Source: Scenedesmus sp. PABB004
Taxonomy: Eukaryota
Assembly (NCBI GenBank): GCA_014905635.1
Contig: JABVCE010000011.1
Span: 620,001 to 684,000, forward strand
Length of the DNA stretch: 64,000 nucleotides
Direction of reading: 5' to 3'
The position numbers and the translations under genes were made by a program. Below, piece by piece: positions 3,724 through 64,000 of the stretch; position 1 is the first letter of the stretch; each line of letters opens with the position of its first letter. Under the pieces are notes generated by a model. That model was given only the letters and a program-made list of their open reading frames with translations, was not told the origin of the DNA and ran no database searches.

Positions 3724-5648
3724 ATGATGACCCTGGCGGCCAGCTCGCCCGCCGACGACGCCGCGGCGCCGCCCGAAGACGGCGGAGCGAGCCCGCTGCT
3801 GCGCGCGCTCGCGGCGCTGGACGACGGCGTGTGGGCGGAGGCGCTGCTGCCCAAGCTGCGGGAGGACACCGGCAGCGCGTCCGCGTTCGCGCTGGCCTGC
3901 AGGGAGGCGCGGCGGCTCGTGCAGAGCAGCGCGGCGTCGCTGTCGCTGCGCGCCGCCGACTGCACGCGCGCGGCCCCGCTGGCGCGCCTGGGGCAGCGCT
4001 TCACCGGCTGCAGCGAGGTGGCCTTCGCTCTGACCAGTCCCGGCGACACCGGCGCGCCGCTGGCGACGCTGCTGCCCGCGCTGGCGAGGCGAGCAGCGGC
4101 GGCGGGCGGCGCGCGCGCTGTCGGCCGGGGTGTGTCGGTGTCTTGTGGGCGGCGCGCGTGCGTGCGGCAAGCAACTTTTCAGGCGACTCAGCAGTGGAAG
4201 GGGGCTCACCCACCGCGCCGCCCGACCTGCCCGCCGCTGCACCTGCAGGCTGCCGCGGCTCACGTCGCTGCGCCTGGACGCGGCTGCCAGCGCCGCCGCC
4301 AGCGAGCCGGCAGCCATTGCACCGGCGATTGCGGCAGCTGCCGCGCAGCTGCCAGGCCTGCGATCGCTGGATCTGGCGCTCGGGCGCAGCTGGGAGGGCA
4401 GCGACGCCGCGTGGCGGGCGCTCGGCCTGGCGACGCAGCTCACGCGCGTCGCGGTGCGCTTCGATGCGTTGCTCTCACCCGTCACACTGCGCCACCTGTC
4501 GGCGCTGACCGCCATCAGCGGCCTGGCGAGCCTCGATGTTGGAGTGGGTACTCTGCGCGGCGCGCAGCAATACGGCTTCCTGGCCGGCCTCCCAGCGGCG
4601 CTCACGCAGCTTACGCTGCCCCTGGCGTGCGATCACCAGGGCCTGGACGCCGTCGGCGCCTGCACAGGCCTGCAGAGCCTCACGTTCGAGGTGCATCCCA
4701 GCAGTGATTACAGCGACGATCGTGTCTGGCCCACACTGGGTGAGGCGGCGTGTGCGTCGCTCGCGCGGTGCACGCGTCTCACTGCCCTGGACGTCTTCGT
4801 GGAGCAAAGCTCCGACCCGCACCTCCTGGCGGCGCTGGCGGCGTTGACTGGCCTGCAGGGACTCTGCATTGACCATCTGTCGCGCGCCTCGCTGCCGTGC
4901 CTGGCCAGCTTGAGCCAGCTCACCTACCTGCAGGGCAGCTGGGTGGAGGGTGCCGGCGGCGGGGCCGGCCGCGCCAGCGCAGCCTGCCCGTCGTTGGTGG
5001 AGCTGTGCGGCAGGGGCCCGGTGCTGTTTGAGGCGTCCCCCCGCCTGCGCAGGGTGGTGCAGATTGGTGCGTGGCCGACCGCTACGCTGCGGGGGCTGGC
5101 CGCGCACTGCAGCGGGCTGACGGCGCTTGTTGTGTGTGGGTGCGGGCACTGGGCGGGGCCCAGCTTTGAGGCCGGCACCGGCGCCCAGGTCGAGTGCGTG
5201 GCGGCGCTGCGCACCCTGGCCGGCCTCAAGGAGCTGCGCGTGCTGGGTCTGTCGGCCAGCGACGACGCGGAGGTGGCGGCGCTGGCCGCGGCGACGCAGG
5301 TCACCTGCCTGGTCCTGCGCGTCCCGGAGGGGAGCGCTTGCACGGCTGCCGGGCTGATGGCCCTTGCGCGCATGACCTGGCTGCGCGATGTCTGGCTGGA
5401 GCTGTTGGCTCGAGCTGAGCGGGGAGGACGCGCAGGCGTGGCTGCGCGCGCTGCGCTTTGCGGACAAAGTGCGCGTGTCAGTGACGGACGAGGGCCAGCG
5501 CGCAGCGTGGGCGATTGCGGCGGCGGCGGTGGCGGCGCACGCGCCTGGCACGGCGCGGCCCGACTGGTTTGTGGTGAAAGTGGTGCGGCCGGTGCAGGCG
5601 CCACCGGCCAACGGCGTCTGGTCGGGCAGCGAGGACGAGTGGGAGTGA
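3724..5648 (+). pseudogene. F-box-like/LRR-like family copy 1 (2 exons); 2-nt deletion frameshift near 5405 (real lesion or assembly error)
   Basis: Exon 1 3724-4088 (LLRALAALDDGVWAEALLPKL..FALACREARRLV), GC donor at 4089, exon 2 from about 4249 with LxxLxL repeats. Reads ctgTTGGctc where copy 2 has ctgTTTGGGctc; the C-terminus continues in ORF 5388..5648. Confidence 0.65.
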
Positions 5649-5804
5649 GACGACGCGGCGCTGGGCGGCGACTCGGGTCTGGCTTGTGCGCGCTGGTGGG
5701 TGGGTCGTGCGGGCGCTGCAGGCAGCGGCGCGCTGAGGCTGTGTGCGGTGCCCGCTCGCGTGTGCGCTCGTAAGCACACCAGTTGCACGGCGGTCGTGGC
5801 GGCC

Positions 5805-7352
5805 TCACGCGTCAAACGCTGCCATCTGCTGCGCCAGCTCCTCCTCCTCCTCCTGATCGCCAGCACCGTCCAGCGCGATGGCATCGAAGCTGCCGCGCGC
5901 GCCGCCGCCGCCGCCGTGCGGCTCGCCCAGCCGCGGAGGCTGCGCCCCGCCCCTGCTTGCCTGGTGCGCGGGCGCGCGCAGCGCGAGCGCGCCGGCCGCT
6001 GCAAACTCTGCCTGCCGGGCCAGCATCGCCCGTACGTCGTTGCCTCGCCCCCCTGCCGGCGCCCTGCAGCCGCCGGCAGGCGCGGCGCCGTGCCGGGCGG
6101 TGGCGGGCGGCGCGCGCCCGTCCGGCGCGGGCTCCGCTGCTGCTGGGCCACCGACGGCCTGCTGCTGCTGCGCCTGCTGCTGCGCCTGCTGCTGCTGCGC
6201 CTGCGGCTCCTCGGCCTCGTCATCCACGATGCCCAGCTCCTCCAGCAGGCTGCCAAACATGCTGCCCACCCCGCCGGCGCTGGAGCGCCGCCCCGGCTTG
6301 GCGGCGCCCCCGCCCGCGCCCGGGTCTGCGCGGGGCGGGCGCACGCCCGCCACCGCCGCGCCGGCCGCCGCGGCGGCGGCGGGGGCGGCGCCTGAGCAGC
6401 GCCGCCCCGCCAAGGGGTTGCTCGGCTGCAGCACCAGCGGGTGCAGCGTGCCGCAGGACGACCGCCGCGTGCCGCCGGTGCCGCCCGAGCCGCCGCTGCC
6501 GGGCCTGCCGCCGCTGCCGCTGGCCGCTGCCTCGGTGGCGGCGCCGCCTGGATCGGCGCCCGGCGCCGCCGCAGCTGCGCCGGCCTGGCTGTCCTCGATG
6601 CTGTCTGCCGTGAAGTGCGTGGGCAGCGTGGCGGCCGGCGACGCCTGATCGCCCTCGCCGGCGGGGCAGGGCTCACGGTGCGCGCCAGCAACGGGCTCCT
6701 CCAGCTGCTGTGCACGCGGCTGCCCCTGGCCGGCGCCTGGCGCGGTGCGAGGCTGACACGGGGCGACCAGCGCCTGGTGCTGCTGCGTCGACTGCTGCTG
6801 CGACGCCTGCTGTTGCTGCTGCGACATGAGCAGCTGCGCCTTGCGCTGGGACACCGAGAGCGACCGCCGCCCGCTGAGACCGCCGCTCGCGCCCGCAGGC
6901 CCCCCGCTGCCGACGGCCGCCGTTGCGGCTGCGGCGGCCGCCCCGGCTGCGGCCTGCCTGAGCAGGTGACCCGCGCCGGGGGCCGCCGCCGCGTGCGCGT
7001 GCGGCTGCCAGGGCGCCTCCTCCTCCTCGGCATCATCATCCAGCAACACCTGCCGCCGGTGGCCTGCCGCGGCGCGCTGCCTGCGCGTCTGGCCCAGGCA
7101 GCCGCCGTCGTCCTCGCCGCCAGGGCCCCGGCCGTCGCCGCCGCGCTTGGCGCCTGCGGCCGCAGCCGGCTGCCTCTCAGCGGTGCCGAGCTGCCTCACT
7201 ATCGCTTGGTCGAGGGCCTGGTCAAAGTCAACGCCGGCGTCGCTGGCGGGCGTGACGTCCGTGACCAGCTGCACGTCGCTGTCGCTGTCGCTCCCACTGC
7301 CGACGCCGGCGCGCGCGGCTTGGGCCGCCGCGGGCCGTTGCTGCCGTCGCCA

Positions 7353-7434
<82 letters not shown>

Positions 7435-8983
7435 TGCTGCGCCTCCTCGACCATCACGACGTCATCATCAGTGTCAGACATCGCCGCGCCTGCCGCTGCG
7501 ACCACCGCCGCGTCGTCCTCGCCCGCCGTTTGCTCGTCTGCAGGCTCGGCCGCCGCGCCGCCCGCATCGTCAAGGAAGCCCCACGCCGCGTCGTCGTCCA
7601 GCCCTGCTGTTGCCGCCGCCGGCGGCGCCCGCGCGGCGCCAGCGCTCGGCGGCCCCGCTCCTGCGTGTGCAGCCCGCCGCCCGCCTGTCCGCATGGCTGG
7701 CAGCATGACCCTGGGGCCACTGGCCTGCTGCTGGTCGCGCGGCTGGGCCGGCAGGGTGGGTGGCTGCTGCTGCTGCGGCTGCTGATGCGACCTCGGCGGC
7801 GGCTGCTGGTGCTGCGGCGGCGGCTGCTGCGGCGGCGGCTGCGCCAACGCTGGCGGCACCGCGGGCGGCCCAAACGACTGCTGGGCCGACGACGGCTGCT
7901 GCGCCGCGCCGGCCCACGCCGCCGCCGCCGCCTGCGCGTAGACCTGCTCCGCAGTGCGCTGCACGTCGCAGTGGTCTGCACCGCGCGGCCACCGTCCACG
8001 GGGCGCGCGCGCGCGCACAGCAGGTCGGCGCGACGTGAGCGCTGGCTCGGGTGCGACGCGCCCCCGCCGCCCCGCAGCGCCGCGCCGCCGCGCGCGCCGC
8101 CGCGCACCTGCCGGCCTGCCCACGTGGGCCAGCAGCGCCTGCCGGGCGGCCTCCAGGCGGTCCACCACGCCGCCGAGCACCACCACGTTCTCCGGCTGCA
8201 GCAGCAGCACGCCGCGCCGCACCGCGGGGTTGACGAGCAGCAGCTTGGTGCCCGCGGGCAGCAGCACGCGCAGCGCGGGGACGTGGCGGTACTCCAGCGC
8301 CACCACCTGCTGCACGCCTGGCGCGGCGCGGGCGCAGAGGGGCGGCGCGGCGCGGCGCGGCGCGGCGCGGGCGCGCGGCGGCGGGCGGGGCGTCGGCGGG
8401 CAGCGCGGCGGGCGCGGCAGGCGCGGCGGGTGGCGGGGCGGGCGCTGCCGCGGCGCGCACCGTCGGTCAGGTGCAGCTTGAGGCAGCGGTTGGGCCCCGC
8501 CTCGTGGTACCTGCGGCCGTGCGTGCGCGTGTGCTTGCTGGGGGCGCCACCCGCGCCGCCGCCGCGCCGCCGCCACGCCGCACCGGTCCCGGAAGCCTGC
8601 CGCGACGTTGACGGCCTCGTCCAGCTGCAGCATGAACTTGCCCGCCAGCGTCGTGCCGTGCAGCGCCTGCGGCGGCGGCGGCGGCCGTCGCGCTGCGCCC
8701 CCGGCGCGCGGCGCGGCGCGCCGGCGGCCGGCGCTGCGCCGCCGCGCACATCGACGCCCGGCGGCAGCAGCCCGCCGGCGCCGGCGGCGCGGAAGTCGGC
8801 CACCAGCAGCGCCTCCAGCAGCGCCGCGAGCTGCGCGCCGTGCGGGAGGCGCGCGAGGTCGCCGCCGTGCGCCGCGGCCAGCGCGGGCAGCGCGGCCGCC
8901 AGCCACGCCGGCGCGGGCGCAAAGCCGAGCGCCTCCCGCGCCGCGGCGCCCAGGGCGGCGGCGGCGCCGCCCGCCTCCGCCAT
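5805..8983 (-). CDS. RMI1: RecQ-mediated genome instability protein 1-like (RMI1 N-terminal helical region plus OB fold) with a long low-complexity, polyQ-containing C-terminus
   Basis: Spliced exons give LLVADFR..LLP, KFMLQLDEAVNVA, RCLKLHLTDG, VVALEYRHVPAL..LPAGTKLLL..VRRGVLLLQPENVVVLGGVVDRL, which is the RMI1_N/TDRD3-type OB-fold signature. Confidence 0.8.
7355..7432. repeat. (CTG/CAG)n trinucleotide repeat of about 25 units encoding polyQ in the RMI1-like gene
   Basis: Uninterrupted gctgctgct run seen directly. Confidence 0.95.
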
Positions 8984-9428: not shown

Positions 9429-12386
9429 ATGCCCGTTCTCGGGCGTCCCGGCGTCAGCAGGGCGGGCGTAGCCGCGCGGCGAGGTGCGTGACGCGCGCGC
9501 GGCGTCCGTGAGCACCCCCACGCGCCGCGGCAGGCCCGCGCGCTCACTGCTCGCGCGGCGCGCCGCTCGCTGCTGCGCAGGCGGCCCGCCCAGCCGCGCC
9601 CAGGCGCGCAGCGCGCCGGCGTCCGCGGCCCGCCGGCTGGTGGCCGAGGCGCCGGCGCCCTCGCCGGCCGCCGCGCCCGCGGCGGCGCCGCCCGGCGGCG
9701 CCGGGGGCGGCCCGGAGCCGCTGCCCAAGCTCCAACCCATCAGCGCCGCGCTCGCGCGCGAGCTCGCCCGGGAGGCCCGGCTCAAGCGCCGCCTGCGCAA
9801 GCAGCTGTCCCTGCTGCAGCGCCAGCTCGCGGCGGCGGATGCCGCCGGCTGGGGCGACGGCGCGGGCGGCGGCAGCTGGGACGGCGACTCTGCCGCGGGG
9901 AGCAGCAGCAGCTGGGAGGCCACCGAGGACCCGCTGTTCGCACCGACCACGCCGCCGTCGGTGCAGCAGCTGCAGCGCCGCCTGGTCGCGGTGCGCCGGC
10001 GCCTGCGCGCGGCGGGGAGCGCGAGCCTGAGCGACGTGCTCACAGGTGCGGCGCGCGCCGGCGCCGGCGCGACCGCGCGCTGCCAAGCGCGCGCGCCTCG
10101 CCGCCGTCGCGCCGACGATGCGCGCCGCCCGCGTCGCGCCCGTGCGCCCCGCAGTCGCGGGCCGGCTGCAGGACGTCGCGGCCTGCCTGGAGCTGCCGCT
10201 CGACTCCGTCGTGCCGATGGTGGCGCGGCACGAGGCGCTGCTGCTGCAGCCGCCCGCCGCGCTGCCGCCGCGCCTCGAGCTGCTCGCGGGCGCGCTGCAG
10301 CTGCCGCGGCGCGAGGCCGCGGAGCTGCTCGCGGCGCGCGCGCCGCAGCTGCTCGCGACGCCGCTGCCGCGGCTGCAGGCCCACCTCGCGGGGCTGGCGC
10401 GCGTGCTGGGCAGCCGCGGGCTGGACCCCGCGGAGCTGCTGCAGGAGCGGCCCGACGTGCTCAGCCAGAGCCCCAGCAGCATCGAGGCAAAGCTGGAGGA
10501 GCTGCCGCGCGCGCTCGGCATGTCGCGCCAGCAAGTGCGCCAGCTCGTCGCCGAGTGCCCGCAGCTGCTGCGCCGCTCGGTGGCCAGCCTCGCGCACCGG
10601 TGCGCGCCGCGCGCGGCGCGCGCGCTGGCGCAGTCTGCCCCGCCTCGCCAGCCCGCACGCGCGGCGTGGCGCGCCGGAGCGCTCTGACGGCCGCCACCGC
10701 GCTGCTGCCGCCGCCGCCGCCGCAGGTACCGCTCGCTGTGCGAGCTGTTCAGCATCCCCACGGCCTTTGTGCAGGAGTTTGTCGTGCAGGAGCCGGAGCT
10801 GCTCTGCGTGTCGGCGCCGACGCTGCGGGCCAAGTTTGACGCGCTCGTGCAGCGGTGCGCGCCGCCCCGCCGCGCCGCCGCGTCCGGCCCCTGCCCCAGC
10901 CAGGCAGCGCGCCCCGCCGCCCGCCCACGCCCGCCCGCCGCCGCCCGCCCGCCTTGAACCCTGAACCAGGTACGGCGCGTTCTCGGATGACGTCGTGGAC
11001 ATGGTGCTGGTCGACCCGAGCATGCTGCTCAACGCCGACCCCGCGGCCGCGGGCCGCGCGCCCGGCGTGAAAGCAAGCCGCAAAAAGGCGGCCGCGGCGG
11101 CGGCGGCGGCGGCCGAGGCGGCGGCCGCCAAGGAGGCGCAGGCGCAGCAGGCGCAGCAGCAGGAGCAGGAGCTGGAGCAGGAGCAGGAGCAGGAGCAGGG
11201 CGGCGGCAGCCGCAGCGGCGGCGACCAGCTGCGCGCGGCCGCCGACGCGGCGGCCGCCGCGGTCGCGGCGGCCGCGGGCGCGGGCGCGGGCAGCGCGTGG
11301 CCGGCGGCGGCGGCGCTCGCAGAGTTTGAGGCCGCCCTGGCGGGCGCGGTCGGCGGCCCCGGCGCCGGCGAGGAGCCCGCCCCGGCCGGCGCAGGGCTCG
11401 AGCCGGAGCCGTGGCAGCTCCTGCTGGCGCAGCGCCAGGAGCGCCGCGCCGCGGCGCGCGAGCGGCAGCGCCTGCGGCGCCAGCTCAAGCAGCAGCTGCA
11501 GCAGCAGTGGCTCGCCGGCGCGGACGGCGACGCCGCGGCGGGGCAGGAGCAGCAGGCGCTGCTGCAGTGGGCCGAGGCGCGGCTCGGCGCGCCGGCGGTC
11601 GAGGCGCTCGCCGCCGTGGCCGCGCCGCCCGCCGCGAGCACGCGGCAGTCGCCCGTGCGGCAGCTGCTGGCCTTCTCTGCCGCCACCGGGCTCAGCCCGG
11701 GGCTGGCGCTCGCGCTGTGGCAGCAGGAGCCGGCGCTGGCGCAGCTGCCGACGCCCGTCATCGCGGCGCAGGTGTCGCGCCTGTCGGCGGCGCTCGGGCT
11801 GGAGGCGCAGCCGGCGGCGGAGGCGGAGGCTGCGCAGCAGCAGCAGCAGGCGGGCGGGCAGGCGCTGGAGCAGCCGGCGGGCGGGCAGGCGCAGCGGCCG
11901 GTGCTGCGCGTGCTCGTGCGCGAGCCCAGCCTGCTGGCGCTGCCGCCCAGCCGGCTTCGCGACAACCTGGCGGGCCTGCGCGACCTGCTCGGCCTCAATC
12001 CGCAGCGCGGCCTGCTGCCACTGCTGTGCGATCACCCGGGGCTGCTGCTGCTGTCGCCGGAGGCCGCCGAGTACCGGCTGCAGCACCTGGCGGGCCTGCT
12101 GCAGCTGAGCGTGCCGGCGGCGCTCGCGCTCGCGCTGGGCCAGCCCCAGCTGCTGCGCGAGCGCCCCGTCGCGCTCGCCGCGCGCCTGGGCAGCCTCTGC
12201 ACGCTGCTCGGCGTGGGCCGGCGCGTGGCGGGCGAGTGCGTGCTGCGCGAGCCGCGGCTGCTGTGCCTGGACGACGGCGAGCTGCAGGGGCGCTGGGAGG
12301 GCCTCTGCGGCCGCGTGGGCTGGGCGGACGACGCGCTCGACCTGGTGCTCGCCGACCCGGCGGCGCTGCTGCGCGGCGAGCTGTGA
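9429..12386 (+). CDS. mTERF-like helical repeat protein, probably organelle-targeted; multi-exon
   Basis: Repeats of about 35 aa such as RPDVLSQSPSSIEAKLEELPRALGMSRQQVRQLVAECPQLL, EPSLLALPPSRLRDNL and QPQLLRERP. Start inferred from ATG 9429 and intron 9484-9580. Confidence 0.7.
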
Positions 12387-12663
12387 GACACCCGCGTGCG
12401 GGGAGAGGGGCGCAGCCACCGGCTGCCTGGGCCCTGAGGGCGCCCGGTGTGTAAGCGGTTGGCGGTGGTTGCGGCGCGCGCGGCGACGCGGCCGCGGCGG
12501 CTGCGCGCCTCGGGCGAGCGCGCCGAGCTGCGCCGCTGCGCTGCCAGCCGGAGACGGCCCCGTGCTGCGCCCTGCAGCGCGCGCTCAGCGGCGGCGGCGG
12601 CTGCGTCACCCGAGGTACCGCCTGGAACCAGGCACCGGCGGAGCTGGTTCCAGCGCCGCCGCC
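12211..12663 (+). repeat. Inverted duplication arm A (mTERF 3' coding end plus 3' flank)
   Basis: Reverse complement matches 16193-16641. Confidence 0.9.
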
Positions 12664-16192: not shown

Positions 16193-16641
16193 GGCGGCGG
16201 CGCTGGAACCAGCTCCGCTGGTGCCTGGTTCCAGGCGGGACCGCGGGTGACGCAGCCGCCGCCGCTGAGCGCGCGCTGCAACGACGCAGCACGGGCCGCC
16301 TCCGGCTGGCAGCGGAGCAGCTCGGCGCGCTCGCCCGAGGCGCGCAGCCGCCGCGGCCGCGTGCGCCGCGCGCGCGCGCGGCAACCACCACCAACTGCTT
16401 ACACCGGGCGCCCTCAGGGCCCAGGCAGCCGGTGGCTGCAGCCCCTCTCCCCGCACGCGGGTGTCTCACAGCTCGCCGCGCAGCAGCGCCGCCGGGTCGG
16501 CGAGCACCAGGTCGAGCGCGTCGTCCGCCCAGCCCACGCGGCCGCAGAGGCCCTCCCAGCGCCCCTGCAGCTCGCCGTCGTCCAGGCACAGCAGCCGCGG
16601 CTCGCGCAGCACGCACTCGCCCGCCACGCGCCGGCCCACGC
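16193..16641 (-). repeat. Inverted duplication arm B (orphan copy of the mTERF 3' end, with stop codon and TGTAA signal)
   Basis: Matches 12211-12663. The coding part looks identical by eye; the flank has small indels. Confidence 0.9.
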
Positions 16642-16826
16642 GCAGCCCGCCGCGGACCCCCGCAGGCCGCTGCAGGCACCGTAGCGCCTGGGCGCCGCCT
16701 GCTTATTGCTACCCCATCCTGCACAGCCGGGCGGGCACGTCACAGCGCCCCCTCCCCACAGGTGATTTGCATCGCGAGCCGCAGCGCTGTGCAGTCTGCC
16801 TCCGCCGCGCGCCGCGCCGCGCGCGC

Positions 16827-19451: not shown

Positions 19452-19467
19452 GCGGCTTAAGCCCTGC
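19452..19467 (+). promoter_or_regulatory. Conserved upstream motif GCGGYTTRARCCYCTGC of the F-box/LRR-like family (representative copy)
   Basis: Related motif about 90-125 nt upstream of the ATG in copies 1-5: 3604-3620 (also 3496), 19452, 34894-34910(-), 49575-49591(-), 61926-61942(-). Function inferred. Confidence 0.45.
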
Positions 19468-19575
19468 GCTGCCGCCGCGCCACGCGACGCAGCCGCCCGC
19501 GCGCGCCGCGCACAGCCCACTCCACACCCGCGCCCCAGCAGCGCTCCGACGCCCCGCACCGGCCCAGGAGGCGCC

Positions 19576-21603
19576 ATGGCGGCCAGCTCGCGCGCCCGGC
19601 GCGGCGCGGCGCCGCCGCCCGACGGCGACGGAGCGAGCCCGCTGCTGCGGGCGCTCGCAGCGCTGGACGACGGCGTGTGGGCGGAGGCGCTGCTGCCCAA
19701 GCTGCGGGCGGACGCCGGCAGCGCGCCCGCGTTCGCGCTGGCCTGCAGGGGGGCGCGGCGGCTCGTGCAGAGCAGCGCGCCGGCGCTGTCGCTCATCGCC
19801 GCCGACTGCGCGCACGCGGCCCCGCTGGCGCGCCTGGAGCAGCGCTTCACCGGCTGCAGCGAGGTGGCCTTCGCCCTGACCAGTCCCGGCGACGCCGGCG
19901 CGCCGCTGGCAACGCTGCTGCCCGCGCTCGCGAGGTGAGCAGCGCGGCGTCCGGCGCGCGCGGTCGGCCGGGGCGTGTCGGTGTCTTGCGCGTGGCGCGC
20001 GTGTGTGCGGCAAGCAGCAGCTTGCAGGGGACTGCACGCGAAGGGCGGCTCACCAGCCACGCACCCGCCCCGCCCACCCGCCCGCCGCTCGTGCAGGCTG
20101 CCGCGGCTCACGTCGCTGCGCCTGGACGCGGCGGCCAGCGCCGCCGCCAGCGAGCCGGCAGCCATGGCGGGTATGCTTGGCTTTGTACAGTTTGCGCTGC
20201 CAGGCCTGCGGTCGCTGGATCTGACCCTGAGCAGCAGCTGGGAGGCCAGCGACGCCGCGTGGCGGGCGGTCGGCCTGGCCACGCAGCTCACGCGCGTCGC
20301 AGTGCGCTTCGACCTGGGCGAGCACCCAACCGTCACGCTGAGCCACCTCTCGGCGCTGACCGCCATCAGCGGCCTGGCGAGCCTCGCTGTTGGAGGGGGC
20401 ACTCTGCGCGGCGCGCAGCACTACGGCTTCCTGGCCGGCCTCCCGGCGCTCACAGAGCTCAAGCTGCCCCTGGTGTGCGACCACCCCGGCCTGTCCGCCA
20501 TCGGCGCCTGCACAGGCCTGCGCAGCCTTGCGTTTGCGGTGCATCCCAGCGTTGATCATGACAGCGGCACCCTTGTCCGGCCGGCGCTGGTCGAAGCCGA
20601 GTGCGCGGCGCTCGCGCGGTGCACGCGGCTCACCGCCCTGATCATCTCGGTGGACCAAGGCTCCGACCCGCACCTCCTGGCGGCGCTGGCGGCGATGACA
20701 GGCCTGCAGGAGGTCTCCATCCACCAGCTGTCGCGCGCCTCGCTGCCGTGCCTGGCCAGCTTGAGCCAGCTCACCTACCTGGAGGGCAGCTGGGTGGAGG
20801 GCGCCGGCGGCGGGGCCGGCGGTGCCAGCGCAGCCTGCCCGTCGTTGGTTCAGCTGTGCGGCAGTGGCCCGGTGCCACTTGAGGCTTTCCCCAGCCTGCG
20901 AAGCGTGATGCAGCGCGGCGCATGGCCGCCTGCCACGCTGCGGGCGTTGGCCTCGCACTGCAGCGAGCTGACGGCGCTGAAGATAGTCACGTGCGAATGC
21001 TGGGCGGGGCCCAGCTTTGAGGCCGGCGCCAGCGCCCAGGCGGAGCGCGTGGCTGCGCTGCGCGGCCTGGCCGACCTCAGGGAGCTGCACGCGGTGGGTC
21101 TGTCAGCCAGCGACGACGCGGAGGTGGCGGCGCTGGCCGCGGCGACACAGGTCACCGCCCTGATCCTGCGCGTGCCGGAGGGGAGCGCGTGCACGCCTGC
21201 CGGGCTGATGGCCCTGGCGCGCATGACCTGGCTGTGCGATGTCCGGCTGGAGCTGTTTGGGCTCGAGCTGGCGGCTGAGGACACGGCGGCGTGGCTGCGC
21301 GCGCTGCATTTTGTGCGGGACGTGCACGTGTCGGTGACGGACGAGGGCCACCGCGCGGTGTGGGGGAGCGCGGCGGCGGCGGCGCGCGCGCCTGGCGCGG
21401 CGCCTGGCTGGTTCGCGGTGAAAGTGGTGCGGCCTACGCCCACGCCATGGCCGTTGCCGGCCGGCGGTGCCTCGTCTGACGAGGAGGGGGGCAGCGACGG
21501 GTCGGCTTCAGGCAGCGAGGACGAGTCGGAGGAGTCGTCTGAGTCGGAGTCGTCCGAGTCGGAGTCGTCCGAGTCGGAAGACTCTGCTCTGGGCGGCGGC
21601 TAG
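19576..21603 (+). CDS. F-box-like/LRR-like family copy 2 (intact, 2 exons, acidic Ser/Glu tail)
   Basis: Exon 1 19576-19934, GT-AG intron 19935-20096, exon 2 20097-21603 open to TAG. Confidence 0.8.
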
Positions 21604-22085
21604 CCTCAGGCTCTCTTGCGCGCGCTGGTGGGTCGGGTGGGGCGGTCGGCGGCGGCCCGTTGGGGCTGTGCGGTGCTCGCGTGCTTGCTGCGTGTGGTCG
21701 GCGTGCTGCGCGTGCGGCCGCCCGTGCCGCGCGTGGCAGCCTGGCGCGCGTGCCCCAGGCCGGTGCCGCAGTTGCTGTTGCAAAGGCGTTGCTGCTGCGC
21801 CCCCAAGTGCATGGCGAGCTGCCGTGCCGACCGCGGCCGGGCGAGCGCGCTGCGAGCGAGGCCAGCGCGCCCCCCGTGCTGCGCGCGCCAGCCGCCAGCG
21901 ACCGCCGCCGGGCTACAGGCACAGCTGCAGGTCCCCACAGGGGCCGTCGGCAGCGGCAGGCCCGCGCACCCGTCGTGCTGCGCACCGCCGCCGCCAGCAG
22001 CCGCCGCCAGCAGCGGCCGCCGGCCCAAGGGTCACAATCACACGGAGCGGGGCCCCGGCTCGCTAACCGCCCGCCGCGGCGTGGC

Positions 22086-27272: not shown

Positions 27273-27328
<56 letters not shown>

Positions 27329-32546: not shown

Positions 32547-32953
32547 GGCCGCGGCTCGCTGGCGTGTGCCGCCTGGGCGGTCTACAGCGCGCGATGGGGA
32601 GGAGCTGGTGCAGCAGATGGTGCAAGCGTTTGACGCGCATGCGTGAGGCTGCCCTGACGCCGTGCGCGCAACTGGCATGCTTACGCCGGTCAGAGCTCCG
32701 TGCTTGCGCCGCGCCAGCCGCAAGCGCGCAGCCCCCCTGGCAGCGCACGCGCCACGGGAGCACCCAGGCGGGGGCACCGCACAGCCTCGACGCGCCGCTG
32801 CCTGCTGCGCCCACACAACCTACCAGCGCGCACAAGCCAGGCGTGAGCCGCCGCCCGCACGCGTCGTCTCACTCGAGTGAGGAGGAGCTCCCCCTCCTCC
32901 CACTCGCCCTCGCTGCCTGAAGTCCACTCGTCGCTGTCCTCCTCTTCGTCAGA

Positions 32954-34806: not shown

Positions 34807-35147
34807 GGCGCCTCCTGGACCGCTGCGGGGCGTCGGGAGCGGTGCCCGGGGCGCGGGGCGCGGAGTGTGGGCTATGCGCGGCGCGGCGGCGGCGCAGGGG
34901 TTCAAACCGCGCGGCGGGCCGGGCGGGCGCCTGCCGGGTGGCCGGCCGACGCCGCTCTGTGGGGCCCTGAGCTGGAGCTGGAGCCTGGCGGCGGTCGCTG
35001 GCGGCTGGTGCGCAGCACGGGGGCGCGCTGGCCTCGCTCGCAGCGCGCGCTCGCCTGGCCGCGCGGCCGGCACGGCAGCCTCGCGTGCGCCGCGCGCAGT
35101 CCCGGTTTCCGGCTGCCATCTGCGCGCCTGCGCGTCGGCACCGCCGC

Positions 35148-37621: not shown

Positions 37622-38143
37622 GCTGCCGGCTCGTCGTCGCGGCGCCTCCTCCACGTCGATCAAGGCTCGGACACGAATCTCTCAGAGCTGGCGCGCCGAT
37701 CGCGCCCGGCGGCGCTGCTGCTGCGCGGACGCAGCGAGCTCGGCGCTGCCTGGCCCCAAGCAGGCTCCGCGGTGGGCTGCCCTGGGCGGCGAGCGAGTCC
37801 TTCTGGTGTGAGCGGCGGGCACGCGGCTGATCGACTGGCTGCGGTTCAGGGCACCGCCGAGCTAGAGCGCTTGCCGGGCGCAACCGCGCAACCGCCGGTG
37901 CTCACCGTCCACTTCGCGGCGGCGCCCCGCGCGATAATAGCGTGCAGAGGCGACGAGAGAGAGGGAAGACCAAATGGCGCTCGCTCAAAAGGCCAAAAAA
38001 GCGGGGCCCGCCCCCGCGCACGCGCAGCCCCGCGCCCGCGCCCGCGCCGCCCCGCGGCGCGCTGGCTCACGCCGCCGGCAGGCGCCGCCGCGCTCCCCGC
38101 GCCCCGCGCCCGCGCCCCGCGCCCCGCGCCCCGCGCCCCGCGC

Positions 38144-46332: not shown

Positions 46333-46366
<34 letters not shown>

Positions 46367-47303: not shown

Positions 47304-47615
47304 GGCGCGGCGCGGGCGGCGCGGTGGCGCTGCGCAGCGCCACCGCATGCGGCGGCGGCGGCGAGCTGCTGGAGCTGGGCGGGTGGCGGCTGCAGATGGC
47401 GGCGTTGGACGCGTGAGGCCGCCACGACCGCCGTGCGCGCAACTGGCATGCTTACGAGCGCACACGCGAGCGGGCACCGCACACAGCCTCAACGCGCCGC
47501 CGCCTGCGCCGCCCGCGCAGCCCACCAGCGCGCACAAGCCAGACGCGAGCCGACGCCCATGCGTCCTCCTCCCACTCGTCCTTGCTGCCCAGTCGCCGTC
47601 CCCCTCTTAGTCGGA

Positions 47616-49479
47616 CTAGACTCCGCCGCCCACCAGTGGCCTAGGCTGCACCACGCCACACCTGAGCTTGGCAGGCAGCGCGTGGCCGGCCGCGCGCGCC
47701 GCCACCGCCGCATGAACCCACATCGAGAGCTCGCCCTCATCCGTCACCGCCACGTGCACGTCCCGCACGAACTGCAGCGCGCGCAGCCACGCCTGCACGT
47801 CTTCTGGCGCCAGCTCAAACGCAAACGGCTCCAGCCAAAGATAGCGCAGCCAGGTCATGCGCGCCAGGGCCATCAGCACGGCAGGCGTGCACGCGCTCCC
47901 CTCCGGCACGCGCAGGATCAGGGCGGTGACCTGCGTCGCCGCCACCTCCGCGTCGTCGCTGGCTGACAGACCCAGCACGCGCAGCTCCTCGAGGCCGGCC
48001 AGGCCGCGCACCGCCACGCGCTCCGCCTGGGCGATGGCGCCGGCCTCAAAGCTGGGCCCCGCCCATTGCTCGCAAGCAAGCAACTCAAGGTCCACCAGCC
48101 TGCTGCAGTGCGCGGCCAGCCCCTGCAGCGTGGCGGGCGGCCATGCACCAATCTGCACCATCCTGCGCAGGCAGGGGAACGCCTCAAACGGCACCGGGCC
48201 CCTGCCGCGCAACTGAACCAACGACGGTCAGGCTGCGCTGGCGCTGCAAGCCTCACCGCCGCTGCCCTCCACCCAGCTGCCCTCCAGTAGGTGAGCTGGC
48301 TCAAGCTGGCCAGGCACGGCAGCGAGGCGCGCGACAGCTGTTCAATGACGAGCTTCTGCAGGCCCGTCAGCGCCGCCAGCGCCGCCAGGAGCTGCGGGTC
48401 AGAGCCCTGCTCGACGAAGACGTCCAGGGCAGTGAGCCGCGTGCACAGCGCGAGCGCCGCGCACTCCGCCTCGCCCAGCGCGGGCTCCACAAGGGTGGCG
48501 CTGTAATAATCAAAGCTGGGATGCACGACAAAGTGGAGGCTCCGCAGGCCGGTGCAGGCTTTAACGGCGTCCAGACCCTGGTGGTCCCACACCAGAGGGA
48601 GCCGTAGCTCCGTGAGCGCCCCTGGGAGGCCGGCCAGCAAGCCGTAGTCCTGCGTGTCGTGCAGAGTGCCCACATGAACGGCGAGGCTCGCTAGGCCGCT
48701 GAGGGCGGTCAGCGCCGACAGGTGGTGCAGCGAGACGGTTGGGTGAACGCAAAGGTCGAAGCGCACCGCGACGCGCGTGAGCTGCGTGGCCAGGCCGACC
48801 GCCCGCCACGCGGCGTCGCTGTCCTCCCAGCTGCTGCTGAGCGCCAGATCCAGCGACCGCAGGCCTGGCAGCTGTGCTGCCACTGCCGCGATCGCCGGTG
48901 CAACGACCGCCGGCTGGCTGGCAGCGGCGCTGGCCGCCGCCTCCAGGCGCAGCGACGTCAGCCGCGGCAGCCTGCATGAGCAGCGGGCGGGCAGGTCGGG
49001 CGGCGCGGTGGGTGAGCCGCCTTCCACTGCTGAGTCCCCTGGATAGCTGCTCGCCGCACGCACGCGCGCCACCCGCAAGACACCGACACGCCCCGGCCGA
49101 CAGCGCGCGCGCCGCCCGCCGCTGCTCACCTCGCCAGTGCCGGCAGCAGCGTCGCCAGCGGCGCGCCGGCGTCGCCGGGACTGGTCAGAGCGAAGGCCAC
49201 GTCGCGGCAGCCGGTGAAGCGCTGCCCCAGGCGGGCCAGCGGGGCTGCGTGCGCGCAGTCGGCGGCGCGCAGCGACAGCGCCGCTGCGCTGCTCTGCAAG
49301 AGCCGCCGAGTCTCCCTGCAGCCCAGCGCGAACGCGGAAGCGCTGGCTTTGCTCAGCTTGGGCAGCAGCGCCTTCACCCACACGCCATCGTTCAGCACCG
49401 CGAGCGCGCGCAGCAGCGGCGAGCCTTCGTCATCTTCGGCCGGCGGCGCACCGCCGTCAGTGCGCGAGCTGGCCGCCAT
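47616..49479 (-). pseudogene. F-box-like/LRR-like family copy 4; frameshift plus in-frame nonsense codon
   Basis: Exon 1 49479-49130 is intact. Exon 2 from 48971 has a 1-nt deletion at about 48288, TGC>TGA at 48230-48228, a short in-frame deletion (AEVAATQ) and a decayed tail. Confidence 0.85.
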
Positions 49480-49904
49480 GGCGCCTGCCAGAGCGCTGCG
49501 GGGCGTCGGAGCGCTGCTGGGGCACGGGGGCGCGGAGGTGGCTGTGCGCGGCGCGCGCGCGCAGCTGCGGCGGTGCAGAGGTTTAAGCCGCGGCGGGCCC
49601 GCGCCGGGGCTCTGCGTGGCCCTGCTGCTCCGCTGTTACACTCCAGCAGACCGACAGAATGTACACAGAGGGACGCGCGCCGCGGCCCGCCGCCACAGCC
49701 GCCGGCCGGCGGCGGGCAGCGGCGGCAGCGCGCGCGCGCGCCCTCTCGCAGCCCCACGCGCGCCGCGGGCTTATTGCCGCCGCCGGCGCCCCGCCCCGCC
49801 GCCGCGCTCAAAAATCCGCGCGCACGCCCCCCGCGCGCGCGCGCGCCGCAACGCCGCTCCCGTCCCCGCCCACCACCACGCCGCCGCCCCGCGCGCACGC
49901 GCGC

Positions 49905-54478
<4,574 letters not shown>

Positions 54479-55517: not shown

Positions 55518-59006
<3,489 letters not shown>

Positions 59007-59846
59007 GCGCGGCCGCTGCGCCCGCGGCGCGTGCGCTGCCGCGCGCGCGCGCCGCGCTGCGTGCTGTGCGGGTGGGCTGTACTTGCGGGGGGCGGCGGCT
59101 CGGCGTGCCGCGGGCCGCTGCGTGTTTGCACAACCCAATCCAGCTCCCTGTCGGCTGTGTTCCGCCAAGGGAGACGCTCCGGTCTGCGTGCGAAGGGGGG
59201 CACGTGCCTGCGTCCGTCGGCCCCGCGCCGGCGCGCGCGAGCGCCCGGGCAGCGCGGCGCCCTCTGCTCGCGGGGCAGGCCGGCTGCGGTCGCCGGCGCG
59301 GACGCCGGCCTCCACGCATGCCGTGGCGCGGGCGCCGCGCTTTTGCAAACTTGGGGGTGCCTGGCGCCGTTTGCTTTGTATCACCATGTAGCCTCCCGCG
59401 CTGCGGTGGTGGGTCTGGTCTGGTTGGGCCAGGCGGCGGGGCGGCCGCCGAGAGCCGGCGGCGGCGCGCTCGACGATCGGCGCCGGCGCGCAGGAGGGCG
59501 TGGTGCGGCGGTGAGCGGTCGCAGGGGGCGTTGTTTGTTTACCTGTGCAGGCCGCGTCCGCACGCGCAGCCACGCCGATCAGGCAGCGCGCGCGTCCACC
59601 GATCACCGCTCGAACCACCAGCGCAAACGTGCCAACTGCTTACGCCCCTCGGAGCTCCGTGCTTGCTGCCGCGCCAGCCGCAGGCGCGCAGCCGCAGGCG
59701 CGCAGCGCACACGCCCCGACAGGACACGCGCCGCGACAGCACACGCGCCGCACACAGCCTCAACGCGCCGCCGCCTGCAGCGCCCGCACGACCCACCCAC
59801 CAGCGCGCACAAGCCAGACGCGAGTCCCACACGCCGACGCGTCGTC

Positions 59847-61802
59847 TCACTCCTCCTCCCACTCGTCCTCGCTGCCCGACCAGACGCCGTCGGCCGGTGG
59901 CGCGGGCGCCTGCACCGCCTGCACCACTTTCACCACAAACCAGTCGGGCCGCGCCGTGCCAGGCACGTGCGCCGCCGCCGCCGCCGCGACCGCCCAAACC
60001 GCGTGCTGGCCCTCACCCGCGACCGACACGTGCACGTCCCGCACGAACTGCAGCGCGCGCAGCAACGCCCGCGCGTCTTCTTGTGCCAGCTCGAGCCCAA
60101 ACGGCTCCAGCCAGAGATAGCGCAGCCAGGTCATGCGCGCCAGGGCCATCAGCCCGGCAGGCGTGCAGGCGCTCCCCTCCGGCACGCGCAGAATCAGGCC
60201 GGTGACCTGTGTCGCCGCGGCCAGCGCCGCCACCTCCGCGTCGTCGCTGGCTGACAGACCCAACACGCGCAGCTCCTTGAGGCCGGCCAGGCCGCGCAGC
60301 GCCGCCACGCGCTCCGCCTGGGCGCTGGCGCCTGCCTCAAAGCTGGGCCCCGCCCAGAGCTCGCACCCACACAGATCAAGTGCCGTCAGCCCGCTGCAGT
60401 GCGCGGCCAGCCCCTGCAGCGTGGCGGGCGGCCACGCACCAATCTGCACCACGTCGTGCAGGCACCACGTCGTGCTGGGGAACGCCTCAAACGGCACCGG
60501 GCCGCCGCCCCACAGCTGAACCACCGACTGGCAGGCTGTACTGGCGCCGCCGACCCCGCCACCGGCACCCGCCACCCAGCTGCCCTGCAGCTGAGTGAGC
60601 CGGCTCAAGCTGGCCAGGCACGGCAGCGAGGCGCGCGAGAGATGTTCGATGGTGAGCCGCTGCAGGCCCGTCAGCGCCGCCAGCGCCGCCAGGAGGCGCG
60701 GGTCGGAGCCCTGATGCACCAGGATGTTGAGAGAGGTGAGCCGCGTGCACCGCGCGAGCGCCGCGCACTCCGCCTCGCCCAGCGTGGGCCAGACAAGGGT
60801 GCCGCTGTCATAATCAACGCTGGGATGCACCACAAACGCAAGGCTGCGCAGGCCGGTGCAGGCGCCGATGGCGTCCAGGCCCCGACGGTCGAACATGAGG
60901 GGCAGCACCAGCTGCGTGAGCGCCGGGAGGCCGGCCAGGAAGCCGTAGTGCTGCGCGACGTGCGGAGTGCCCACTCGAACATCGAGGCTCGCCAGACCGC
61001 TGAGGGCGGTCAGCGCTGACATGTGGCTCAGCGTGACGGTTGAGCGCAGCTGCACATCGAAGCGCGCCGCGACGTGTGTGAGCTGTGCCGCCCCACCGAG
61101 CGCCTGCCACGCGGCGTCGCTGTCCTCCCAGCTGCTCCCAAGCACCAGCTCCAGCGACCGCAGGCCTGGCAGCTTCGCTGCAGCTGCCGCAATCGCCGGT
61201 GCCACGACCGCCGGCTGGCTGGCGGCGGCGCTGGCCGCCGCGTCCAGGCGCAGCGACGTGAGGCGCGGCAGCCTGCAGGTGCAGGGGCGGGCAGGCGGGG
61301 CGGCGCGGTGGGTGAGCCGCCCTCCGTATGGAGTCGTCTGGACAGCTGCTTGCCGCACGCACGCGCGCCACCCGCAAGACACCGACACGCCCCGGCCGAC
61401 CACGCCCCGGCCGACCGCGCGCGCGCCGCCCGCCGCCGCTGCTCACCTCGCCAGCGCGGGCAGCAGCGTCGCTAGCGGCGCGCCGGCGTCGCCGGGACTG
61501 GTCAGGACGAGGGCCACCTCGCGGCAGCCGGTGAAGCGCTGTCCCAGGCGCGCCAGCGGGGCCGCGTGCGCGCAGTCGGCGGCGCGCAGCGACAGCGCCG
61601 CCGTGCTGCTCTGCACGAGCCGCCGCGCCTCCCTGCAGGTCAGCGCGAACGCGGGCGCGCTTCCAGCGTCCTCCCGCAGCTTGGGCAGCAGCGCCTCCGC
61701 CCACACGCCGTCGTCCAGCGCCGCGAGCGCGCGCAGCAGCGGGGACGCCGCTGCGTCGGGCGGCGGCGCCGCGCCGCACCGGGCGCGCGCACGCGTCAGC
61801 AT
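59847..61802 (-). CDS. F-box-like/LRR-like family copy 5 (intact, 2 exons)
   Basis: Exon 1 61802-61447, GT-AG intron, exon 2 61272-59847 open. Confidence 0.8.
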
Positions 61803-62403
61803 GGCGCCTCCTGGAAGAGCGCTGCGAGGCGTCGGGGCGCTGCCGGGGCGCGGGGCGCGTAGTGGGCTGTGCGCGGCGCGCGCGGGCGGCTGCGGCGCGC
61901 GCGGGCGGCGGCAGCGGCGGCGGCGGCAGGGGTTCAAGCCGCGGCTGCCTGCCGATGCCGCTCTGTGTGGTGGCCCTCAGCTGCATATGTAGCCCGGCGG
62001 CGGTCGGTCGCGGCTGGCGCGGCAGCACGGCGGGTTGACTGGCCACGCTCGCAGCGCGCTCGCCTGGCCGCGGTCGGCCCGGCAGCTCGCCACGCACTGC
62101 GGGACGCAGCAGCAACACCTTTGCAACAGCAACTGCGGCAGAGATCCTGGGGGCGCGCGCCAGGCCGGCACGCGCGGCAAGGGCGGCCGCACGCGCAGCA
62201 CGGGAGCAGAGAGAGAGCACGCACGCGGGCACCGCACAGCCTCAACACGCGCAGCTGCCAACACCCCGCGAACCACAACAGCCTCTGGAGGTCAACAAAG
62301 CACTGCGTCGCCTGCTCTGAGCCTCGTCACCGCCGCCGCCCCGTCCTGCTGCCCCCTCCTCATCCGACGAGGCGCGGCCGGCTGTCGCCAGCGCCTGTGC
62401 CAT

Positions 62404-64000
62404 CTACTCCACCAGGCCCACCTCAAAAAAGCCCGGCGCCTCGCCAGCGCCACGCGCCGCAACCTCCGCAGCCGCCCACACCGCGCGCTGGCGCTCACAC
62501 GGCGCCAGCACGTGTGCATCGCGAGCAAAGTGCAGCGCGCGCAGCCACGCCTCTGCGTCCTCCTCGCACAGCTCGAGGTCAAGCAGGTCCACCCTGACAG
62601 TGCGCAGCCAGGTCATGCGTGCCAGGGCCATCAGCCCGGACGGTGTGCACGCGCTCCCCTCCGGCACGCGCAGGACCAGGGTCAGGACCTGCGTTGCTGT
62701 GGTCAGCGCCTCCACCTCCGCGTCGTCGCTGGCAGAAAAGCTCAGCCAGCGCAGCCGGTTGAGCCCCGCCAGGGCGCGCAGCGCCGCCACGCGCTCCGCC
62801 TGGGCGCTGGCGCTGGCGTCAAAGCTGGGCCCCGCCCACTGCTCGCACCCACACAGATCAAGCGCCGTCAGCCCGCTGCAGTGCGCGGCCAGCCGCTCCA
62901 GCATGGTGGGCGGCCACGTGCCGCGCTGCACCGCGTCGCGCAGCCTGGGGAACGCCTCAAATGGCACCGGGCCGCTGCCCCACAGCTGCACCACCGACGG
63001 GCAGGCTATGAGTGCGCCGCCGACCCCGCCGGCAGCATCCTCCACCCAGCTGCCCTGCAGCCGAGTGAGCTGGCTCAAGCTGGCCAGGCACGGCAGCGAG
63101 GCGCGCGACAGCTGTTCGATGGTGAGCTTCTGCAGGCCCGTCAGCGCCGCCAGCGCCGCCAGGAGGTGCGGGTCGGAGCCTTGGTCCACCGGGACGTCCA
63201 GGACGGTGAGCCGCGTGCACCGCGCGAGGGCTGCGCACTTCGCCTCGCTCAGCGTGGGGTTCGAAAAGGTGCCGGACTCGCTCCGGCCTGAGTAGGCGTA
63301 GAACAGAAGGCTCCGCAGGCTGGTGCAGGCGGCGATGGCGGGCAGGCCTGGGTGGTCCGGCATCAGGGGCAGGTCGAGGTGCGTGAGCGCCGGGAGGCCG
63401 GCCAGGAAGCCGTAGTGCTGCGCATCGGCAATGTAGTTGGCGTCGACGACCAGGCTCGCCAGGCCGCTGACGGCGGTCAGCGCCGACAGGTGGCGCAGCG
63501 TGACGGTTGAGTGCAGCCGCGAATCGAAGCGCACCGCGACGCGCGTGAGCTGCGTCGCCAGGCCGACCACCCGCCACGCGGCGTCGCTGTCCGCCCAGCT
63601 GCTCCCGAGCACCAGCTCCAGCGACCGCAGGCCTGGCAGCGCGAGGTGCACCATTCCAAGCACGGGCGCCATGAACGCTGGCTCGCTGGCGGCGGCGCTG
63701 GCCGCTGCATCCACGCCAGGCATTGCAAGGTGGATCAGTCCAAATCCAAACATTGGCACCATGAAAGCTGGCTCGCTGGCGGCGGCGCTGGCCGCCGCGT
63801 CCAGGCGCAGCGAGGTGAGCCGCGGCAGCCTGCAGGTGCAGAGGCGGGCGGGCGGGGCGGGTGCGTGGCTGGTGAGCCGCCTTCCACTGCTGAGTCTCCT
63901 GGACAGCTGCTGGCCACACGCACGCGCGCCACCCGCTGGGACGCCGCCACGTCCCGGCCGACCGCGCGCGCTTGCCCGCCGCTGCTCACCTCGCGAGCGC
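62404..64000 (-). CDS. F-box-like/LRR-like family copy 6 (most of exon 1 is beyond the window; internal duplication of about 30 aa; stop before the acidic tail)
   Basis: Exon 2 63829-62404 is open. Donor gag|gtgagc lies near 63989. In tandem with copy 5. Confidence 0.7.
   Translation of the reverse strand, partial: RSRGEQRRASARGRPGRGGVPAGGARACGQQLSRRLSSGRRLTSHAPAPPARLCTCRLPRLTSLRLDAAASAAASEPAFMVPMFGFGLIHLAMPGVDAAASAAASEPAFMAPVLGMVHLALPGLRSLELVLGSSWADSDAAWRVVGLATQLTRVAVRFDSRLHSTVTLRHLSALTAVSGLASLVVDANYIADAQHYGFLAGLPALTHLDLPLMPDHPGLPAIAACTSLRSLLFYAYSGRSESGTFSNPTLSEAKCAALARCTRLTVLDVPVDQGSDPHLLAALAALTGLQKLTIEQLSRASLPCLASLSQLTRLQGSWVEDAAGGVGGALIACPSVVQLWGSGPVPFEAFPRLRDAVQRGTWPPTMLERLAAHCSGLTALDLCGCEQWAGPSFDASASAQAERVAALRALAGLNRLRWLSFSASDDAEVEALTTATQVLTLVLRVPEGSACTPSGLMALARMTWLRTVRVDLLDLELCEEDAEAWLRALHFARDAHVLAPCERQRAVWAAAEVAARGAGEAPGFFEVGLVE

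Follow-up and report, generated by a model that had tools for sequence, protein, structure and literature searches.

Introduction

Cf-4/9 and lettuce RGC2 are said to be the classic subjects of work on clusters of plant resistance (R) genes. Two published accounts describe gene conversion between paralogs in such clusters, one for the SH3-CNL cluster of coffee (PMC3113787) and the other, as a further plant example, for the RPP8 family of Arabidopsis (PMC6771003). Here we describe a cluster of six leucine-rich repeat (LRR) gene copies, c1 to c6, from the green alga Scenedesmus sp. PABB004, in which the copies are mosaics of one another. The cluster occupies a window of 64,000 nucleotides, this being the whole stretch of DNA that was analysed (positions 620,001 to 684,000 of contig JABVCE010000011.1). 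The pattern seen in it matches that of the textbook plant R-gene clusters, and the algal LRR cluster is a new example. A literature search made largely without subscription journals gave no account of such conversion among clustered LRR genes of chlorophytes.

The likeness to plant R-gene clusters lies in the grouping of paralogs with birth and death, in conversion between paralogs that gives rise to chimeric genes, in the presence of pseudogenes among intact copies, and in a raised ratio of nonsynonymous to synonymous substitution rates (dN/dS, or omega) at exposed strand residues, which here is significant relative to the rest of the sequence though not above 1. In other respects the two differ. 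In the algal copies no domain of the NB-ARC, TIR, coiled-coil or kinase type and no transmembrane part was found; their N-terminus is predicted to be helical and F-box-like, and they stand 12–16 kb apart among unrelated genes and in both orientations. The host is a unicellular chlorophyte for which a comparative paper gives an assembly of 39.8 Mb in 77 contigs, with 78.5% GC and 1.31% repeats (PMC12571836).

A second group of systems that invites comparison is that of the F-box proteins, of which fast-evolving families were reportedly described by Thomas in 2006. Two further papers describe the expansion and fast evolution of F-box families in nematodes and plants (PMC8120010, PMC3030570). Like the F-box/LRR receptors of Skp1–Cullin–F-box (SCF) complexes (TIR1, COI1, MAX2/D3 and FBXL), the algal proteins are predicted to have a short helical N-terminus that is followed by a long LRR solenoid, and like the fast-evolving F-box families they are lineage-specific, expanded and variable in the part that is predicted to bind the substrate. 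Unlike in the F-box/LRR receptors, however, the F-box is unrecognised by sequence, and template modelling scores (TM-scores) against these receptors are only about 0.4. The predicted architecture would nevertheless seem closer to that of F-box LRR adaptors than to that of nucleotide-binding LRR receptors (NLRs).

Conversion from cassettes is known from the variable lymphocyte receptors of lampreys, the immunoglobulin pseudogenes of chicken and the variant surface glycoproteins of trypanosomes. As in these systems, short tracts in the algal cluster move blocks that code for LRRs or surfaces, and the disrupted copies are a possible reservoir. The algal copies are on the other hand six full-length units and not promoterless, with c1 to c5 keeping the 5′ flank, the ATG and the intron, and c6 the intron. 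The tracts are also old and diverged, and there is no sign of a single expression site or of a programmed process.

Six copies with mosaic ancestry

Comparison of the window with itself by BLASTN gives six repeated units of approximately 2.2–2.5 kb with 78–85% identity; in the alignment of the six copies the pairwise divergence is 13–23%, corresponding to 77–87% identity. Copies c1 and c2 are on the forward strand and c3, c4, c5 and c6 on the reverse strand. The only exception to the regular spacing is c5 and c6, which are adjacent, and the intervening DNA is non-repeated. The gene has two exons and encodes approximately 17 leucine-rich repeats, preceded by an N-terminal domain that is predicted to be helical. 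The 5′ flank, the ATG, exon 1 (about 119 codons) and the long exon 2 are common to the copies in the MAFFT alignment, and a phase-2 intron of 158–174 nt is found at the same place, bounded by GT-AG in five copies and by GC-AG in c1. The splice model of c2 matches the deposited protein HT031_003842 (P0001, 621 amino acids) exactly.

A first-pass annotation, made from the sequence alone, had proposed that variable blocks are shared by different sets of copies along the gene, in groupings that cannot fit one tree, through gene conversion or recombination. All seven of the motif groupings on which it relied were found in their places, both by an exact six-frame search and in the codon alignment. 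GFVQFALPG is present in c2 (20179–20205) and c3 (34211–34237), and APAIAA in c1 (4319), c4 (48884) and c5 (61185). Similarly, ALDVFVEQ is seen in c1 and c4 and ALIISV in c2 and c3, DSGTLV in c2, c3 and c5, ALIACPSVV together with NRLRWLSFSASDD in c3 and c6, WLRYLWLEPF in c4 and c5, PGTARPDWFVVKVV together with GVWSGSEDEWE in c1 and c5, and ARAAGHALPAKL in c3 and c4. The spacers that had been described as nearly invariant, SLPCLASLS and SASDDAEV, each occur in all six copies. Of the 25 informative splits that six copies allow, 24 are present among the 157 biallelic informative sites, and these are spatially clustered, with runs of the same split for 2+3+6 at alignment columns 989–1105, for 2+4 at 1190–1236, for 3+6 at 1714–1744 and 1997–2027, for 4+5 at 2166–2237 and for 3+4 at 2322–2353.

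The recombination tests covered the alignment between the intron and the 3′ end of exon 2, with 1513 ungapped columns, 596 of them polymorphic and 219 informative. The pairwise homoplasy index (PHI) was 0.368, whereas the permutations had a mean of 0.495 (z = −14.8), none of the 10,000 being as low, and the neighbour similarity score was 0.766 against an expected 0.509. As a null control, 100 alignments were simulated without recombination on the maximum likelihood tree under the fitted GTR+F+G model; these gave PHI z values between −1.91 and 1.74, with 4% below −1.645. In the approximately unbiased (AU) test, applied to six equal windows of the alignment fixed a priori, not one of the 105 topologies was accepted throughout, and the best passed in three of the six. 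In each of 15 null simulations, on the other hand, between 5 and 20 topologies were accepted in all six windows, and the possibility of one tree for every segment can therefore be rejected. Allowing a different topology in each window, with window-specific branch lengths under both models, increased the log-likelihood by 56.0, compared with 0.0–3.9 in the 15 null simulations. A segmentation by dynamic programming, which uses branch lengths from the whole alignment, was treated as exploratory only, the equal windows being the test. With PHI, the AU windows and the gain in likelihood all lying beyond the null, and with the scan for shared tracts described below, the proposal of mosaic paralogs that cannot be placed on one tree is borne out.

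Tracts shared between copies

In a GENECONV-like scan, with significance from permutation of the polymorphic sites, 4 of the 15 pairs were globally significant when no mismatches were allowed and 8 of the 15 when mismatches were permitted, with tracts of 64–470 alignment columns. On the reverse strand, c3 has a tract in common with c6 at 33311–33768 (62734–63191 in c6), where 431 of 458 positions are identical as against 700 of 963 outside (global p 0/3000), and another with c4 at 32975–33038 (47640–47703 in c4; 62/64 inside and 1082/1364 outside). The tract of c4 with c5 is at 47746–48041, also on the reverse strand (60022–60332 in c5; 278/296 inside and 903/1111 outside). On the forward strand, c1 has a tract at 5543–5675 in common with c5 (59821–59964; 124/132 inside and 1116/1296 outside), the partners being in opposite orientation and 54 kb apart, and c2 has one at 21097–21231 in common with c4 (47850–47972; 121/123 inside and 1065/1305 outside), also in opposite orientation. 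A further region of c2 on the forward strand, at 20499–20673, has tracts with both c5 (60735–60870) and c3 (33743–33901), and c3 and c5 have a tract in common at 33812–33902 and 60765–60855 respectively.

Identity within the tracts ranges from 121/123 (c2–c4) to 145/159 (c2–c3), while outside them it is 73–86%; the spread of the values implies that the exchange events differ in age. The partners are in opposite orientation in four of the eight significant pairs (c1–c5, c2–c3, c2–c4 and c2–c5). An inversion of the intervening DNA would be expected from crossing-over of two such copies, and non-reciprocal conversion would therefore be the simpler mechanism. The disrupted copies c1, c3 and c4 have significant tracts in common with the intact copies c2 and c5. 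Pseudogenes are possible, but equally not necessary, donors in conversion.

Synonymous sites were considered separately. A synonymous comparison within tracts that have been defined from all sites is partly circular, and it was replaced by one in which the tracts of each pair were defined by amino-acid matches alone and synonymous differences were counted at codons with identical amino acids. Tracts defined in this way are globally significant in 2 of the 15 pairs, c3–c6 (codons 188–335) and c4–c5 (codons 308–386), and together they contain 10 synonymous differences in 163 compared with 79 in 388 outside (Fisher p 8.7e-6). The drop is evident in the c3–c6 tract taken singly (4/104.8 against 38/162.5), that of the c4–c5 tract not being significant by itself (Fisher p 0.11). 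In 13 of the 15 pairs the synonymous rate is lower inside the tract than outside. The low synonymous divergence of tracts picked out by their amino acids points to the exchange of DNA rather than to convergence. PHI is also significant for the third codon positions alone (z = −5.3), for the 5′ flank and exon 1 of five copies (z = −4.6; 0/10,000 permutations) and for the 3′ flank (z = −2.7; 138/10,000).

Variation on the predicted concave face

The AlphaFold2 model of c2, built with an alignment of its relatives, has a mean predicted local distance difference test score (pLDDT) of 86.2 and a predicted TM-score of 0.82. Three helices at the N-terminus lead into a solenoid in which each repeat contributes a single short strand, and of the 19 strands in all, 17 are in exon 2. 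In LRR proteins the x residues of the xLxLx motif face the solvent, and the concave sheet that they form is used for binding. Variation among the copies was mapped onto the strands assigned by DSSP in the c2 model, which were fixed a priori, and tested by 442 circular shifts. Along the strand register the mean pairwise amino-acid diversity is 0.51/0.18/0.61/0.20/0.50/0.19, with the peaks at the x positions of the xLxLx strands, and the diversity of the strand class exceeds that in all but 7 of the 442 shifts. Conservation is highest in the five residues that precede the strand, where the diversity has a mean of 0.155 and a range of 0.10–0.20 (none of the 442 shifts being as low). For the six residues after the strand the diversity of 0.311 is not significant, 95 of the 442 shifts being as high. 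The variable patches had been placed on or just after LxxLxL strands; the first part of this description agrees with the model, the second does not reach significance, and one of the patches that had been listed, GFVQFALPG/APAIAA, is off the strands in a predicted helix (residues 140–153).

Estimated by the Nei–Gojobori method (NG86), dN/dS is 1.39 at the 51 exposed strand codons, where dN is greater than dS in 14 of the 15 pairs, 0.41 at the 51 strand codons that are buried and 0.72 at the remaining 341, the value for the whole of exon 2 (455 codons) being 0.78. The difference between exposed codons and the rest corresponds to an odds ratio of 2.2–2.6 (p ≤ 1e-4 for three sets in which the pairs are disjoint). 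Relative to the remainder of the gene, nonsynonymous change is therefore in excess at the exposed strand positions, but not in the stricter sense of an omega significantly above 1.

A family of LRR proteins with a predicted helical N-terminus

Pfam gives only sub-threshold matches of the window copies to LRR_14, that of exon 2 of c5 having an E of 2.8e-5 and 23.5 bits compared with a cut-off of 40, and that of c2 an E of 0.012. An exhaustive HMMER search of 1.84 billion representatives returned 179 relatives at E ≤ 0.001, mostly with 27–43% identity, and among 98 aligned relatives LRR_14 is matched by 51 at E ≤ 0.01 (best 3.5e-15). One member of the family outside the genus is A0A383W4Q4 of Tetradesmus obliquus. 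The c2 model aligns to 50 solved LRR entries of many kinds with VIA-align Z scores of 15.6–19.5. Taking the profile match at the level of the family together with the predicted solenoid, the copies belong to the LRR proteins. The one metagenome locus that a profile of the copies picked out (L001; 32% identity over 67 residues) was dropped from consideration, as it had no match to a family protein at E ≤ 1e-8.

The top matches in Foldseek, from which the TM-scores given above derive, are MAX2, TIR1, D3 and COI1 over approximately 560–710 alignment columns. In the full-length model the N-terminal helices are at residues 22–29, 32–45 and 50–66, with pLDDT values of 62–83, and the whole-chain alignments to COI1, D3 and TIR1 begin at residues 7–22 of the model and residues 8–12 of the chains. 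The N-terminal domain is conserved within the family, with Trp35, Leu40, Pro41, Leu43, Cys57 and Arg61 invariant in 18 sequences; we take these residues to resemble the F-box consensus. The Pfam F-box-like model matches 1 of the 18 N-terminal domains (E = 0.016), with no match to the window copies, and a profile of the domain, compared with PDB sequences, gave only one match, an irrelevant one (E 1.3). Modelled alone, the domain was of low confidence, with a pLDDT of 55. Given that it is not detected as an F-box by sequence and that it is modelled poorly alone, the domain is labelled as F-box-like only. The 98 relatives match 11 Pfam families, and neither these nor the Pfam matches of the window copies include a signalling domain of the NB-ARC, TIR or coiled-coil type, a kinase or a transmembrane part; as no NB-ARC, TIR or coiled-coil domain was detected, the family is not an NLR.

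At least ten members of the family are found on the one 1.28-Mb contig (1,281,093 bp), including the six in the window. Those outside it include P0002 (HT031_003825), two full copies in P0152 (HT031_003855) and one copy in P0154 with 55% identity. For the two P0152 copies the nearest window copy changes along their length. A search for near-match proteins with c2 returned P0001 and P0002 only, and a search for shorter matches returned none.

Interpretation and alternative explanations

Our reading is that gene conversion between paralogs is real in this lineage-specific LRR cluster, with mosaic ancestry accompanied by diversity on the exposed strands, and we would give it a probability of about 0.8. 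The mosaic ancestry, its reach to synonymous sites and the place of the variation in the structure are directly supported by the results above. The copies would represent a lineage-specific family of intracellular LRR proteins of the Scenedesmaceae, with an F-box-like N-terminus and about 17 LRRs, that would have evolved by duplication and decay. Repeated short, non-reciprocal ectopic gene conversion, in either orientation and over distances of up to tens of kb, may have made each copy a patchwork in which the closest relative switches every few hundred bases or less. The differences gather on the exposed x residues of the xLxLx strands of the predicted concave face, with the scaffold before the strands being conserved. 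Conversion would reassort blocks of recognition residues, the diversity would presumably be selectively useful and the concave face would be likely to bind a variable ligand.

A number of results weigh against this reading. At silent sites in codons for invariant amino acids PHI gives no signal (z = +0.57 with 22 informative sites), and the split at a silent site is the same as that of nearby amino acids in only 5 of the 22 (988 of 10,000 permutations as high). PHI is not significant either for the intron by itself (z = −1.09; 14 informative sites) or at the level of amino acids for eight copies (z = −1.39; 900/10,000). At the exposed codons an omega above 1 is not significant, with estimates of 1.19–1.41 and p values of 0.08–0.25, and NG86 estimates are rough where the G+C content at third codon positions (GC3) is 0.84–0.89 and they ignore recombination. 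An overall omega of 0.78 in a set of copies of which three of the six are disrupted means that relaxed constraint could explain much of the variation. The signal in the 5′ flank and exon 1 and in the 3′ flank implies in addition that the binding surface is not the particular target of the exchange. The location of the variation on exposed strand residues agrees with the earlier suggestion of a putative binding surface, but the exchange itself extends beyond that surface. The small indels of c1 and c4 are moreover in short homopolymer contexts, where sequencing error is possible.

Several of these points would suit a neutral explanation, in which the mosaics are real but are a by-product of a decaying cluster whose redundant or dead copies undergo ectopic gene conversion in any case. 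The strands would then vary because exposed residues are less constrained, and not through selection for new binding specificities. To the overall dN/dS, the frameshifts or stops in three of the six copies, the lack of a significant exposed omega above 1 and the exchange outside the LRR surface can be added that the GC3 of the copies is below that of their neighbours (0.953). Other features of the cluster are harder to accommodate. The omega of 0.41 for buried strand residues and the pre-strand spacers as the most conserved class indicate constraint on the family at the level of the protein, the point estimate for exposed residues is above 1 in 14 of the 15 pairs, c2 and c5 have remained intact across approximately 600 codons, and the family has been kept in other Scenedesmaceae, as illustrated by the Tetradesmus obliquus protein. 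We therefore consider a neutral origin unlikely, while regarding it as the strongest of the alternatives.

An artefact of assembly or polishing, with reads misplaced among the paralogs or contigs joined inside them, would be suggested by the poor deposited annotation of the region with its fused models, but seems very improbable. The longest exact match between any pair of copies is only 44–76 nt, and a divergence of 13–23% is too great for reads to be misplaced. The tracts are themselves diverged, with for example 27 mismatches in the 458 nt of the c3–c6 tract, where mis-assembly would yield perfect identity; there are many switches per copy, involving all six copies, and the contig of 1.28 Mb is one of an assembly of only 77. 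Least probable of all is that the blocks arose by parallel or convergent substitution, under selection for the same surface residues and without any transfer of DNA: although the variable positions are few and exposed, with only two or three variants at many patches, and purely synonymous-site tests are weak, synonymous divergence falls in the tracts defined by amino acids, third positions, the 5′ flank with exon 1 and the 3′ flank each give a significant PHI, and unlinked homoplasy yields no PHI signal in the simulations.

Gene conversion between the paralogs, the preferred reading, could be taken further. It is conceivable, though we regard it as distinctly doubtful and less probable than the neutral explanation, that the cluster is a germline-encoded recognition repertoire, in which F-box-like LRR adaptors with concave faces reassorted by conversion, and with the disrupted copies as a reservoir, would direct the ubiquitin-dependent removal of changing proteins that belong to viruses, parasites or mating partners. 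In algae such a repertoire would correspond to the part in immunity that has been proposed for the rapidly evolving F-box families of nematodes and plants. Little is known of the means by which viruses and parasites are recognised in unicellular green algae. A hypervariable predicted binding face together with the exchange of blocks is the evolutionary signature of the recognition receptors of land plants, and the family is a concrete candidate for recognition in the Scenedesmaceae.

Gene models and other features of the window

Copy c1 extends over 3724–5648 on the forward strand, with exon 1 at 3724–4088, the intron (GC-AG) at 4089–4248 and exon 2 from 4249, and its frame is shifted by a 2-bp deletion at approximately 5407. 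The intact copy c2 is at 19576–21603, also on the forward strand, with exon 1 at 19576–19934, the intron (GT-AG) at 19935–20096 and exon 2 at 20097–21603. On the reverse strand, c3 (32954–34806) has its ATG at 34806, the intron at 34481–34320 and exon 2 at 34319–32954, with a frameshift in exon 1 caused by a 31-bp deletion near 34636. Copy c4 (47616–49479, reverse strand) has its ATG at 49479, the intron at 49129–48972 and exon 2 from 48971; a single base is deleted near 48287, a TGA stands in frame near 48230, and there are also deletions of 3 and 12 bp. Frame-breaking lesions are seen in three of the six copies, c1, c3 and c4. Copy c5, which is intact by the present gene model, is at 59847–61802 on the reverse strand, with exon 1 at 61802–61447, the intron at 61446–61273 and exon 2 at 61272–59847. 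Of c6 (62404–64000, reverse strand), exon 1 is beyond the end of the window, the intron is at 63989–63830 and exon 2 at 63829–62404. The limits of 4249 and 63829 given in the first-pass annotation are where exon 2 begins in c1 and in c6, respectively. There is an in-frame tandem duplication of 90 nt in c6 (63741–63651, reverse strand), which doubles the segment with the first variable patch, and its two halves have already diverged.

These models correct the deposited annotation of c1, c3, c4, c5 and c6. The deposited P0003 fuses a Sushi-repeat gene to c1 and skips the frameshift by means of an invented intron at 5330–5432, P0153 fuses a TerC-like gene to c3, and P0151 fuses a DCC-family gene to c6 and c5. 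The regions listed for these fusions are 1–2832 on the forward strand and 37350–40311 and 59871–63831 on the reverse strand. Copy c4 is unmatched by the retrieved deposited models at ≥95% identity over more than 42 residues.

The G+C content of the window is approximately 79% throughout, and the copy units are its GC-poorest parts, with 0.726–0.754 compared with 0.797 for the remainder. The neighbours with which the GC3 of the copies was compared are the exons of the Sushi-like and TerC-like genes. The low GC of the copies is unexpected under frequent GC-biased conversion.

The limits of the units are 3612–5769, 19460–21701, 32685–34902, 47456–49583, 59718–61934 and 62299–64000. Beyond the last repeat the tails vary among the copies in length and in the position of the stop; that of c2 (for example 21430–21600) is acidic, of low complexity and rich in serine, glutamate and aspartate, and is modelled with low confidence. 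The 3′ flank shared by c2 and c6 is approximately 360 nt longer than in the other copies, and at 21659–22020 the flank of c2 has 80% identity over 367 nt to the stretch that separates c6 from c5 (61892–62246). A mobile element with fixed ends carrying the gene was considered and rejected, as the ends of the units vary from pair to pair; no search for terminal repeats was made. Unrelated to the LRR copies is an inverted repeat of approximately 450 nt with 94% identity at 12211–12663 and 16193–16641. At 7325–7452 a GC-rich sequence repeats every three bases; it matches 6122–6221 in many registers and is probably low-complexity coding sequence.

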